This document shows positions 8,197 through 11,254 of a stretch of DNA of 64,000 nt, piece by piece. The notes below the pieces were generated by a model. It worked only from the letters and a program-made list of their open reading frames with translations, made no database searches and was not told the DNA's origin. The DNA lies in assembly GCF_988243305.1 (NCBI RefSeq), contig NZ_OZ547136.1. One strand, given 5' to 3'. Position numbers and translations under genes: made by a program. Position 1 is the first letter of the stretch; each line of letters begins with the position of its first letter.

Positions 8197-8266
8197 GAAA
8201 CCTCGTGCGGTGATTGTTTTTTTGATCTACGCAGTGATGCGTGTGTAAGTTTGCAATTCCGTTTGT

Positions 8267-8284
8267 TGTATTGATTTCTTTACG
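8267..8284. promoter_or_regulatory. Candidate TyrR box in aroP upstream region
   Basis: tgtattgatttctttacg approximates TGTAAA-N6-TTTACA; aroP is a known TyrR-regulon member. Match made by eye only. Confidence 0.3.
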
Positions 8285-8721
8285 TTTCATGTAACTGTAT
8301 TATGATAATGCTACTTTTAACTATCACAAGATAATGGTATATGCGCGAGAATGCACCTGCTTTATGTAGATGTGTTGATTTTCTGGATAAAAAAAAAGCA
8401 ATTGTAAGTTTTTCATCACATTTAATAGATACTTTAAGTCTGATAACATACTGTTTTAACTAGCTATATGCCGGATTTGTCTGCCTTCTGAACACCATGC
8501 CTTAGCCACCAGCACAATAATCTTACAAAAGGTCATATAAGAATAAATAGATGTTAATAATACAATGGGGTTGTAACGCGAGTATTTAAATATAATATTG
8601 CGAGCTAAGTGAAAACGTTAAGTAATTGAAATAATCTTTCATTAAAAGCGTTTCTTATTGATCGAGAAATAAGTTTTCTATTTAATGCAAATAAGTTAAG
8701 GATAAACTGGAATGAAATAAA

Positions 8722-10503
8722 GTGAGCGATATTGTTTACCTGAGAATAATCGGTGAGAAGCAGGGCGATATTTCTTCAGGCTGTGGGACGTATGCGTCGG
8801 TTGGTAATCGCTGGCAGGTTGGCCATGAAGATGAAATTTTTGCCTTTGCACTCACCAACGCCATTACCAGTACTGGTAAAGGCGTTAATCTACAGGGGCT
8901 ACAATTTTGCAAACTCATTGATAAAAGCTCACCGCTACTGTCTAATGCCATCAATCAGAATGAGCGGTTATTTATTGAAATCGATTTGTATCGTATAAAT
9001 AAAAGCGGGCGCTGGGAACGGTATTATTATATTCAGCTAAGAAATGCTTCATTAACTGCTATTCATGTAAACATTTCTGACAATAATCTTCCTACCGAAT
9101 GTGTAACTGTCGATTATGACTACATATTATGTAAACATCTAATAGCCAATACGGAATTTGACTGGTTGGCCTTTCCTGCTGGCTATAATAGCTTATTTAT
9201 TCCACCTAAAAACCCACCTGCCAGTAATCTTAACCCTGAGCCGCTACCAGTTGTTAACCTTCCACTCTCTCCACCAGCGGTTAAACCGGTCTATGCCAAA
9301 TCCTGTCTGAAGGAGAAGGGATGTACAGATGCCGGAACGGCAGAAGAACCCGCTGAAAACTTCGGGCAAGTAGCGATTTTTGCTCTGCCAGTGGTTGATG
9401 ACTGCTGTGGATACCACCATCCGGAGGCTAACGATGTTGGGCAACCCGCAGAAGCTCAAACCATGCTACTGTTTCCGGGTAGCGTATTGGCGGCTCAAAT
9501 ATGGGGAAAATGGTCGCTCAGTGGCGTACTCAGTGCAACCCGTGGCTCTTACATCGGTGCGCTGGCATCTGCTTTGTATATTCCCTCTGCGGGCGAGGGC
9601 AGTGCTCGCGTGCCTGGACGTGATGAGTTCTGGTATGAGGAAGAACTGCGGCAGAAAGCACTAGCAGGCAGTACCGCCACCACCCGGGTGCGTTTTTTCT
9701 GGGGAACTGACATTCACGGCAAGCCTCAGGTGTATGGTGTTCATACGGGTGAAGGTACGCCGTATGAAAACGTCCGCGTGGCTAACATGCAGTGGAACGA
9801 GCAGACGCAGCGTTATGAATTTACCCCCGCTCACGATGTCGATGGCCCCCTGATTACCTGGACGCCGGAAAATCCGGAACATGGGAATGTTCCGGGCCAT
9901 ACCGGTAACGACAGGCCGCCGCTGGATCAGCCCACCATTCTGGTGACGCCGATTCCGGACGGTACAGATACCTATACCACGCCGCCATTCCCGGTTCCTG
10001 ATCCGAAAGAATTCAACGATTATATTCTGGTTTTTCCGGCGGGATCCGGTATTAAGCCCATCTATGTTTACCTGAAGGAGGATCCGCGAAAGCTGCCTGG
10101 TGTTGTAACAGGGCGCGGCGTCCCGCTTTCATCAGGAATTCGCTGGCTGGATATGTCGGTATCCAATAACGGCAACGGCGCGCCAATCCCGGCGCATATT
10201 GCTGATAAATTGCGCGGACGGGAGTTTAAAACCTTTGATGAGTTTCGCGAGGCGCTGTGGCTGGAGGTGAGTAAAGACTCAGTGTTATTGGCGCAGTTTA
10301 TAAAAAGTAATCAGAATAACGTTAGTCAAGGATATTCCCCCTATGTCCCTGAGGAGGGGTATTATTACGGACCAAATGAGATAGTTAAGAAATTCCAGAT
10401 ACATCATGTAGTTGCTATAGAACATGGTGGTGGAGTGTATGATATTGATAATTTTAGGATTGTTACGCCCCGACTACATGATGAAATTCACTACAGGAGA
10501 TAA
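8722..10503 (+). CDS. T6SS Hcp-family protein with C-terminal extension: Hcp domain, Pro-rich linker, pyocin-S-like region, colicin-E9-type HNH DNase (putative antibacterial effector)
   Basis: 593-aa ORF, GTG start. N-terminus MSDIVYLRIIGEKQGDISSGCGTYASVGNRWQVGHEDEIF...DKSSPLL...LYR resembles Hcp tube proteins. C-terminus ...GAPIPAHIADKLRGREFKTFDEFREALW...GYSPYVP...QIHHVVAIEHGGGVYDIDNFRIVTPRLHDEIH closely parallels the colicin E9/E7 DNase H-N-H motif. Not present at this locus in K-12 as I recall it. Confidence 0.85.
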   Translation: MSDIVYLRIIGEKQGDISSGCGTYASVGNRWQVGHEDEIFAFALTNAITSTGKGVNLQGLQFCKLIDKSSPLLSNAINQNERLFIEIDLYRINKSGRWERYYYIQLRNASLTAIHVNISDNNLPTECVTVDYDYILCKHLIANTEFDWLAFPAGYNSLFIPPKNPPASNLNPEPLPVVNLPLSPPAVKPVYAKSCLKEKGCTDAGTAEEPAENFGQVAIFALPVVDDCCGYHHPEANDVGQPAEAQTMLLFPGSVLAAQIWGKWSLSGVLSATRGSYIGALASALYIPSAGEGSARVPGRDEFWYEEELRQKALAGSTATTRVRFFWGTDIHGKPQVYGVHTGEGTPYENVRVANMQWNEQTQRYEFTPAHDVDGPLITWTPENPEHGNVPGHTGNDRPPLDQPTILVTPIPDGTDTYTTPPFPVPDPKEFNDYILVFPAGSGIKPIYVYLKEDPRKLPGVVTGRGVPLSSGIRWLDMSVSNNGNGAPIPAHIADKLRGREFKTFDEFREALWLEVSKDSVLLAQFIKSNQNNVSQGYSPYVPEEGYYYGPNEIVKKFQIHHVVAIEHGGGVYDIDNFRIVTPRLHDEIHYRR

Positions 10504-10799
10504 TGTATATGCATGATTTAAAAGATAAAATATATTTTTACACAGAAGGTGAATTTCTTGAAATGCTTGAGGAGATAGTAAATGCAACTAGCAAAGATAA
10601 ATCCCTAAAAGGGAAAAAATTAGAAAAATATCTCGATACCTTAGTGGATCATTTCATTAAAATTACTGAACATCCTAAAAAGGGAGATCTCATTTTCTAT
10701 CCTAATTCCCAAGAAGATGGTGAACCTGAAAACATCCTGAAAATCGTCAAAGAATGGCGGCGTTCGCAAGGATTGCCTTTGTTCAAAGATTCAGAATGA
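10503..10799 (+). CDS. Colicin/pyocin DNase immunity protein (Im7/Im9 family)
   Basis: 98-aa ORF; YTEGEFLEMLEEIVNA...HFIKITEHPKKGDLIFYP...ILKIVKEWRRSQGLPLFKD aligns by eye with Im9 (YTEAEFLQLV...HFEEMTEHPSGSDLIYYP...VKQWRAANGKSGFKQG). ATG overlaps effector stop (TAATG); AGGAGA RBS 3-8 nt upstream. Confidence 0.85.
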   Translation: MYMHDLKDKIYFYTEGEFLEMLEEIVNATSKDKSLKGKKLEKYLDTLVDHFIKITEHPKKGDLIFYPNSQEDGEPENILKIVKEWRRSQGLPLFKDSE

Positions 10800-11206
10800 A
10801 CTCTAAACAGAATCTGTCACCTCAAAATCATCACGTTCTGGTTAAGTGATGATTTTCGCTACGAGAAGGTTACGGTGGCGATTGCAGTGATAATAAGCAA
10901 TGTAAAAAGAAAACATAGGTAAATACTACCTTTCTCTCCTTCCCTGAACATTCATTTTACATATTAATTCACATAATTGAATTGTTATGCGTTTTGTTGC
11001 TTGGTGAATCGGTTCAGAGGAAATATTTTTTCGTTTCAATTCTGTTAATCTAACTCCTTGATGGGTAAATTTAACATTTGTGCATAGTTACAACTTTGAA
11101 ACGTTATATATGTCAAGTTGTTAAAATGTGCACAGTTTCATGATTTCAATCAAAACCTGTATGGACATAAGGTGAATACTTTGTTACTTTAGCGTCACAG
11201 ACATGA

Positions 11207-11223
11207 AATTGGTAAGACCAATT
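11207..11223. promoter_or_regulatory. PdhR operator (palindrome AATTGGTaagACCAATT) in pdhR promoter
   Basis: Perfect inverted repeat about 30 bp upstream of pdhR ATG, matching the known PdhR box consensus ATTGGT-N3-ACCAAT. Confidence 0.6.
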
Positions 11224-11254
11224 GACTTCGGCAAGTGGCTTAAGACAGGAACTC

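Follow-up and report, generated by a model that had tools for sequence, protein, structure and literature searches.

The insert that separates aroP from pdhR in the 64-kb stretch of contig NZ_OZ547136.1 analysed here (hereafter the window) is PAIusp, the island of the uropathogenic-specific protein Usp (Hcp-ET3-4), which lies at its canonical site and is an already known element. The usp gene has been described since 2000 (Kurazono 2000; Nakano 2001) and is widely used as a marker of uropathogenic Escherichia coli (UPEC). Usp itself is very likely a specialised Hcp effector, in which a tube domain, a linker segment, an inner-membrane translocation (IMT) domain and a colicin-type HNH DNase are combined in a single chain, with one immunity protein. 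The Usp protein of the window is 94% identical over 593 residues to that of UTI89 from the same locus, where the gene is followed by three immunity genes, and 97-99% identical to the proteins of loci L002-L004; the exact protein pair of the window is present on 243 public contigs, under the names TssD/Hcp and bacteriocin immunity protein. The same insertion site is occupied in UTI89, PSUO2, SMS-3-5 and other strains, and PAIusp was located within aroP-pdhR, with the same domain architecture, in all of the usp+ genomes examined in PMC7142922. Usp was called an 'evolved Hcp', with its homology to a VgrG-pyocin fusion noted, as early as 2009 (PMC2907695), was described by Rihtar et al. as being made of Hcp, S-type pyocin and colicin nuclease domains, and has been discussed as a polymorphic toxin (PMC4436062). 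Additionally, a review dealing with type VI secretion systems (T6SS) lists Hcp-ET3-4 (UTI89_C0121), citing Ma et al. 2017 (PMC6730261; also PMC6099711), and UTI89_C0121 would, from position and architecture, correspond to the UTI89 gene at aroP-pdhR. A previous sequence-only reading of the window had regarded this as a locus not associated with T6SS cargo, and had implied that the arrangement was new; neither view can be sustained for a protein that is listed as Hcp-ET3-4, sits at the published PAIusp site (PMC7142922) and shares the above degree of identity with UTI89 Usp. The island and where it sits, its nuclease, the immunity genes, the promoter and the type VI link have all been published already, and the rare single-immunity layout is the only unrecorded detail of this copy.

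A translation check placed the start of pdhR at 11255, and the aroP-pdhR spacer extends from 8197 to 11254 (3,058 bp), compared with 540 bp in K-12 MG1655 (aroP end 121551, pdhR start 122092), in good agreement with the ~3.1 kb and, for K-12, the ~0.5 kb of the sequence-only reading. That reading had treated the whole spacer as extra DNA, however, whereas the differing DNA runs only from ~8285 or 8367 to 11064. Indeed, clean homology with an empty-site genome stops at ~8284 on the left side, with a short conserved patch at 8331-8366, and on the right side there is 99.1% identity with the empty-site genome L001 from 11065 onwards, such that ~180 bp of the empty site is replaced by ~2.7 kb in the window. 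The island is present at aroP-pdhR in 1,058 of 5,426 complete E. coli genomes (19.5%), the others having the 540-bp spacer; as had been supposed, the module is accessory as opposed to core, being missing from K-12 and from ~80% of the complete genomes.

Domain organisation of Usp and its immunity protein

The N-terminus of Usp is a TssD protein by the curated threshold of NCBIfam, with a score of 123.5 bits over residues 1-146 against model TIGR03344 (cut-off 58.9). The same region matched T6SS_HCP (PF05638) in Pfam at residues 28-139 (E=1e-12), and its best Hcp match in the PDB was 6a2v (E=4e-15). At the other end of the protein, residues 460-591 matched Col-Pyo_DNase (PF21431) in Pfam with E=4e-43 and the colicin E9 DNase in the PDB with E=4e-33, and alignment with the HNH motif of colicin E9 showed that the catalytic residues H561, H562, N577, H586 and H590 are all retained. 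Between these lies a Pyocin_S domain (PF06958) at residues 309-450 (E=3e-40; PDB 3mfb, E=1e-17). The earlier description of a 593-residue Hcp protein fused to a C-terminal HNH DNase is thus correct with respect to both domains, but not with respect to their being joined directly, since ~310 residues, including Pyocin_S, separate them. Pyocin_S is the IMT domain of nuclease bacteriocins and is required for import of pyocin G, and Usp serves as the T6SS example of such a domain in PMC9040868. Usp's activity as a nuclease was reported to be non-specific and dependent on the HNH motif (Zaw et al. 2013; PMC3685522).

Residues 171-313 of Usp had no match in Pfam and no sequence relative in the PDB, and an AlphaFold model of this segment built from a 10-sequence alignment had a pLDDT of 43 and offered no usable fold. 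In an alignment of ten Hcp-fused and VgrG-fused homologues the mean column identity of the segment is 76%. It contains an invariant motif, PVYAKSCLKEKGCTDAG...DDCCGY, with four cysteines, which is followed by a variable acidic and histidine-containing linker and then by a hydrophobic stretch, rich in glycine, alanine and serine, that ends in RVPGRDEFWYEEELR. This segment may be a functional element of the cassette that has so far gone undescribed. The four-cysteine and hydrophobic features are common to Hcp- and VgrG-fused toxins, including those at loci L006-L010, L013-L015 and L018.

The gene downstream of usp starts 5 nt after it and is the sole immunity gene before the pdhR upstream region. 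In its long open reading frame (ORF) form it spans 10503-10799 and encodes 98 residues. The protein belongs to the Colicin_Pyocin family (PF01320; E=3e-28 in Pfam), and its closest relatives in the PDB are the pyocin AP41 immunity protein (E=1e-20), Im7 (E=1e-19), Im9 (E=8e-15) and also Im8. It is nearly identical to the first immunity protein of L002-L004 and to the third ('Imu3') of UTI89.

Most of the differences between the window Usp and that of UTI89 fall at residues 518-575, directly upstream of the HNH motif, a part that corresponds to the immunity-binding region. When the 560-bp unit composed of the toxin tip and immunity gene (10240-10799) was compared with the carriers of the island, 275 of 1,058 showed at least 90% identity and the other 783 showed ~74% identity, and the tip therefore travels together with the first immunity gene, the window carrying the minority allele. 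Two usp types have been described, of which uspI is linked to orfU1 and uspII to orfU2, within four island subtypes (Ia, Ib, IIa, IIb) that have two or three orfU genes, and Usp and OrfU1 were reported to form a tight complex (PMC3685522). Because of the near-identity of the immunity proteins, and because the published length of OrfU1 (98 residues) equals that of the long-ORF form in the window, the genotype of the window is probably uspI plus orfU1, and the immunity gene is presumed to be cognate to its Usp allele. In complete carrier genomes this toxin tip is always directly beside this immunity type, which suggests that the actual cognate of UspI would be 'Imu3', and that in UspII islands, which are more common, 'Imu3' would be an orphan. 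The strict co-variation between the tip and the first immunity gene speaks for cognate pairing and is relevant to biochemical reports that disagree, namely the lack of a Usp-Imu3 complex in one case and a tight UspI-OrfU1 complex in the other, which allele pairing could explain if the first of these employed UspII. The coordinates of the various features are collected in Table 1.

Table 1. Features of the aroP-pdhR region in the window, with positions on the strand presented
Feature	Position	Strand	Basis
usp, Usp / Hcp-ET3-4 type, 593 aa, GTG start	8722-10503	plus	ORF without internal stops
Hcp/TssD domain, Usp aa 1-146	8722-9159	plus	TIGR03344, PF05638, PDB 6a2v; 40% G+C
Conserved segment, Usp aa 171-313	9232-9660	plus	Alignment of ten homologues
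Pyocin_S (IMT) domain, Usp aa 309-450	9646-10071	plus	PF06958, PDB 3mfb
Colicin/pyocin-type H-N-H DNase domain, Usp aa 460-591	10099-10494	plus	PF21431, colicin E9 DNase
Variable, allele-defining part of the DNase, Usp aa 518-575	10273-10446	plus	Differences from UTI89 Usp
Immunity gene, OrfU1/'Imu3' type, 96 aa	10509-10799	plus	PF01320; ATG start as in RefSeq homologous loci
aroP-usp regulatory spacer	8197-8721	plus	31% G+C; motifs and alignment with UTI89 and empty site
Island-specific tail	10800-11064	plus	~35% G+C; empty-site homology returns only at 11065
aroP, left flank outside island	6823-8196	minus	ORF and annotated aroP in syntenic genomes
Ancestral pdhR upstream region, right flank outside island	11065-11254	plus	99.1% identity to L001

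Single-immunity layout, promoter and flanks

Orphan toxin-tip fragments and extra immunity genes are present in 1,027 of the 1,058 carriers, with two or three being the usual number of immunity genes, whereas the window has a single one; among complete genomes this layout accounts for about 3% of carriers or fewer. The published two or three orfU/imu genes are therefore reduced to one in this variant of PAIusp, which is nonetheless the same entity. Positions 10200-10800 of the window are a 98% match to L004, in its main toxin tip and its first immunity gene, and positions 10364-11300 are a 96% match to the third module and downstream DNA of L004 and UTI89. Since the window thus resembles the first module and also the third, with its downstream DNA, the layout is best explained by recombination within an array of three repeated toxin-tip/immunity modules, by which the orphan modules would have been lost. 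An uncatalogued PAIusp layout, comprising a uspI-type toxin, a single OrfU1/'Imu3'-type gene and a non-B2 backbone, and formed by collapse of an orphan-module array, is accordingly put forward here only tentatively, as a reading that may or may not prove correct. The same single-immunity layout was observed in the complete genomes of Z1323HEC0300 (L003), FHI_NMBU_03 (L030) and K56-43-un. The usp gene of Z1323HEC0300 (L003 2525-4306) and FHI_NMBU_03 (L030 1025-2806) has a nonsense codon, Q403*, and that of K56-43-un is intact.

Upstream of usp, two sites at 8244-8261 and 8267-8284, which we take to be TyrR boxes by their likeness to the TGTAAA-N6-TTTACA consensus, precede the -10 hexamer TGGTAT of the aroP P3 promoter at 8335-8340. 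The hexamer lies inside the patch at 8331-8366, which is kept in UTI89 and in empty-site (K-12-type) genomes, and the patch is followed by ~350 bp of island-specific AT-rich leader before usp. Judged by these motifs, the divergent aroP P3 promoter, with its TyrR-box-like sites, would lie upstream of usp, an arrangement that is a trait of PAIusp. TGGTAT is also the published P3 -10 hexamer, and P3 was reported to drive usp, with activation by TyrR and repression by H-NS (PMC7142922); the adjacency of usp to aroP is functional.

The 5' end of aroP and the first ~88 bp upstream of it belong to a non-B2, 'empty-site' haplotype, with alignment of window positions 8190-8284 showing resemblance to the empty-site genome L001 and not to UTI89-type strains. 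The combination of the non-B2 aroP-proximal haplotype with the island is also found in SMS-3-5 and GMF054. Island carriers of phylogroup B2 (UTI89, L002 and L004) share another aroP-proximal haplotype, the switch occurring at the TyrR-box-like site 8267-8284. This pattern suggests that the island has moved between lineages via homologous recombination in its flanks. The window backbone is ~99.0-99.4% identical to the nearest complete genomes, and KK19-02, the sole one of these for which the spacer was inspected, has an empty site.

The composition of the island is mosaic: the upstream leader has a G+C content of 31%, the Hcp part one of 40%, mid-usp 52-55% and the immunity gene 33%, the flanking genes aroP and pdhR being at 53-55%. 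Searches of 8100-11400 revealed no integrase or transposase, and only chance 12-16-mers as flanking repeats. Scans with Rfam yielded no match within the island, the PADLOC defence models likewise gave no match, and the number of matches in a sigma-70 scan was below that expected from shuffled sequence. An AT-rich hairpin at 10824-10856 (-16.7 kcal/mol) is a weak candidate for a terminator, with a fold z-score of only -1.5, and was missed by the terminator scan.

Predicted delivery and role of Usp

The window shows traits of an Hcp-ET protein, namely a TssD domain above threshold, a C-terminal toxin and an adjacent, co-varying immunity gene. A scan of a genome collection for relatives returned 15 loci. 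In Lelliottia and Escherichia sp. E1V33 the module corresponding to Usp residues ~165-593 is fused to a bona fide VgrG and followed by one to several immunity genes. The comparison with relatives favours predicted type VI delivery of Usp over release as a free bacteriocin. The VgrG fusions are ~1,190-1,200 residues in length (L018, Escherichia sp. E1V33, 8159-14192; L010, Lelliottia sp., 7742-11658), and those of L018 are followed by four immunity-like ORFs, forming an orphan-immunity array as in PAIusp.

A mechanism can be proposed on this basis, the literature-derived steps of which would apply by extension to the present allele and host. Firstly, TyrR together with aromatic amino acids would activate the usp promoter and H-NS, on the AT-rich leader, would silence it, as has been described for E. 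coli and S. bongori. Inside the producing cell, the immunity protein would bind the DNase exosite and block the nuclease; binding is reported for UspI/OrfU1 (PMC3685522), and for this allele pair the block is suggested by strict adjacency. One Usp subunit would then be built, along with ordinary Hcp, into the tube of a T6SS whose genes lie elsewhere, and be fired into neighbouring bacteria, by analogy with the published proposal of hetero-ring loading (PMC13323088). A complete T6SS cluster is present at aspV in UTI89 (L021), and the reviews PMC6730261 and PMC6099711 report that Hcp-ET proteins, among them the one encoded in UTI89 ahead of three immunity genes, have antibacterial activity linked to a T6SS. 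Once in the target cell, the IMT domain may help the nuclease across the inner membrane, possibly through FtsH as for pyocin G, after which the DNase would degrade the target DNA and cells with a matching immunity gene would survive.

The C-terminal two thirds of Usp are similar to bacteriocins of the nuclease type (klebicin G, E=9e-42; colicin E9; pyocins S2/AP41), and Parret & De Mot 2002, as cited in PMC3685522, originally proposed a bacteriocin. It is nevertheless very improbable that Usp is a diffusible protein of the colicin or S-pyocin kind that is imported via an outer-membrane receptor independently of a T6SS. Its N-terminus is an Hcp domain in place of a receptor-binding or Tol/Ton-box region, Pfam identified no further domain in the protein, no lysis-type ORF follows the immunity gene, and the same module occurs fused to VgrG elsewhere. 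Moreover, purified Usp or Usp/OrfU1 failed to kill any E. coli strain, and the receptor domain is missing (Zaw et al., PMC3685522).

A different possibility is that Usp is mainly a genotoxin or virulence factor directed against mammalian urinary-tract cells, with Hcp serving for export only and the immunity gene for protection of the producer only. The epidemiology of Usp in UPEC, pyelonephritis, prostatitis and bacteraemia, and the damage caused to human cell lines by purified Usp or usp-expressing cells, both accord with this (PMC3917654, PMC4436062, PMC7142922), as does the induction of usp by urea and at 37 C (PMC7142922). Conversely, the polymorphic toxin tips vary in step with the immunity gene, orphan toxin-tip/immunity modules form arrays in carriers, the IMT domain is specific to bacterial envelopes (PMC9040868), and homologues fused to VgrG are found in environmental and plant-associated members of the Enterobacteriaceae. 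Tip polymorphism, orphan arrays, the IMT domain and VgrG fusions are signatures of conflict between bacteria, and a primarily genotoxic function seems unlikely, although the genotoxin and interbacterial roles are compatible with each other.

Several points nonetheless weigh against the view of Usp as a T6SS-delivered antibacterial effector. No T6SS, VgrG, PAAR or integrase genes were found in the 64-kb window, and delivery in this strain is a prediction. T6SS dependence rests on reviews, which are most explicit about experimental dependence for Hcp-ET1, -ET2 and -ET3 (PMC6730261, PMC6099711), and a role as mammalian genotoxin is published, as cited in PMC3917654 and PMC4436062. In addition, the closest islands in complete genomes, those of Z1323HEC0300 and FHI_NMBU_03, have usp as a pseudogene, and no T6SS cluster was found at aspV in either strain, aspV being the only site inspected. 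The pseudogene and the lack of a T6SS at aspV mean, therefore, that the variant can sit in a background where it is decaying, and hint that the usp toxin decays where the delivery machine is absent.

These observations could also be accommodated if the island were a stranded remnant in this host, lacking a compatible T6SS, kept mainly as immunity against usp+ neighbours and heading towards decay. The collapse of the array to one module would fit such a scenario, as would the Q403* codon and T6SS-free aspV site of the closest complete-genome islands, the truncated remnant at the same site in Superficieibacter (L015) and the absence of the island from KK19-02, the near-backbone complete genome that was inspected. 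However, usp is intact in the window with all catalytic residues retained, the occurrence of an identical protein pair on 243 public contigs indicates that the allele is maintained, K56-43-un has an intact usp despite also being of the single-immunity type, and in the pseudogene strains aspV alone, and no other T6SS locus, was inspected. A stranded remnant is accordingly considered rather improbable, and a specialised Hcp effector remains the preferred interpretation of Usp.

The remainder of the window and comparison with known systems

From guaC to hemL, the rest of the window is collinear with the backbone annotated in E. coli. The sequence-only reading had reported no T6SS genes, VgrG, PAAR, integrase or transposase in the window, which holds for the first four, but an Rpn-family recombination-promoting nuclease/putative transposase (a yadD homologue) is encoded at 35997-36941. 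This is the only transposase-like gene and is situated 25 kb from the island, in conserved backbone. The region 36000-60900 is matched over at least 80% in one place by only 459 of 5,426 genomes, with most best matches at 90-95% identity, and this divergence may lie within the fimbrial (yad-type usher/chaperone/adhesin) cluster at ~39078-45627. In the pdhR-aceE spacer there is an Rfam match to the small RNA family tp2 (RF02030) on the minus strand, antisense to the operon, at 12064-12177 (103 bits; gathering score 50). A 757-residue open frame at 12429-14702, also on the minus strand and antisense in aceE, is most likely a chance frame, since KK19-02 has no annotated gene there.

Outside the E. 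coli and Salmonella cases of PMC7142922, the aroP-pdhR site was found to be occupied in two further instances, by a full-length Hcp-toxin gene beside aroP in the Enterobacteriaceae metagenome-assembled genome UBA5654 (L006 10001-12080) and by a truncated remnant between aroP and pdhR in Superficieibacter sp. (L015 10001-11217). The cassette has settled at this site either long ago or repeatedly. Hcp-ET1 (the 'HNH-DNase' of O104:H4/55989) was considered as an identity for the window protein and rejected, the aroP-pdhR site of 55989 being empty.

Classical pathogenicity islands are characterised by a tRNA link, an integrase and flanking direct repeats, whereas the usp island has no integrase, transposase ORF or such repeats. 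The absence of classical-island marks from PAIusp was likewise pointed out in PMC7142922, and Rihtar et al. described the island as low in G+C and without integrase or repeats. With regard to individual toxins, colicins E2/E7/E8/E9 and pyocins S1/S2/AP41 share with Usp the HNH DNase (E=1e-25 to 1e-33), the upstream IMT domain and the downstream four-helix Im protein. Unlike these, Usp has no receptor-binding or Tol/Ton domain and no lysis gene, is encoded on the chromosome and not on a plasmid, and has an N-terminal Hcp domain instead. The Salmonella SPI-21 VgrG-pyocin SARI_02603 (PMC2907695) and the Vibrio VPA1263-type proteins (NCBIfam NF047924) share the cassette equivalent to Usp residues ~165/206-593, i.e. 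the Cys-rich/hydrophobic segment, IMT domain and HNH DNase, with one or several Im-family genes downstream; they differ in having a VgrG spike or MIX-type N-terminus as opposed to Hcp, and are usually located inside or beside T6SS clusters.

Hcp-ET3-4 of UTI89 (Ma et al. 2017 Virulence 8:1189, as related in PMC6730261 and PMC6099711) has the same combination of Hcp, Pyocin-S and colicin-DNase domains and is also encoded away from the T6SS cluster with colicin-type immunity genes next to it, the difference being that UTI89 has three immunity genes and another toxin-tip allele. PAIusp of E. coli Z42, UTI89 and TA211 (PMC3685522; PMC3917654; PMC7142922) occupies the same site and encodes a protein of the same 593-residue length with the same Hcp/Pyocin_S/HNH-DNase architecture, and the islands of UTI89 and other strains have a Usp of 94-99% amino acid identity, the same immunity family, the same P3 -10 hexamer and the AT-rich leader. 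Compared with the published islands, that of the window is distinguished by its one immunity gene, by its minority toxin tip/immunity allele and by a non-B2 aroP-proximal flank, the last of these being as in the phylogroup-F strain SMS-3-5.

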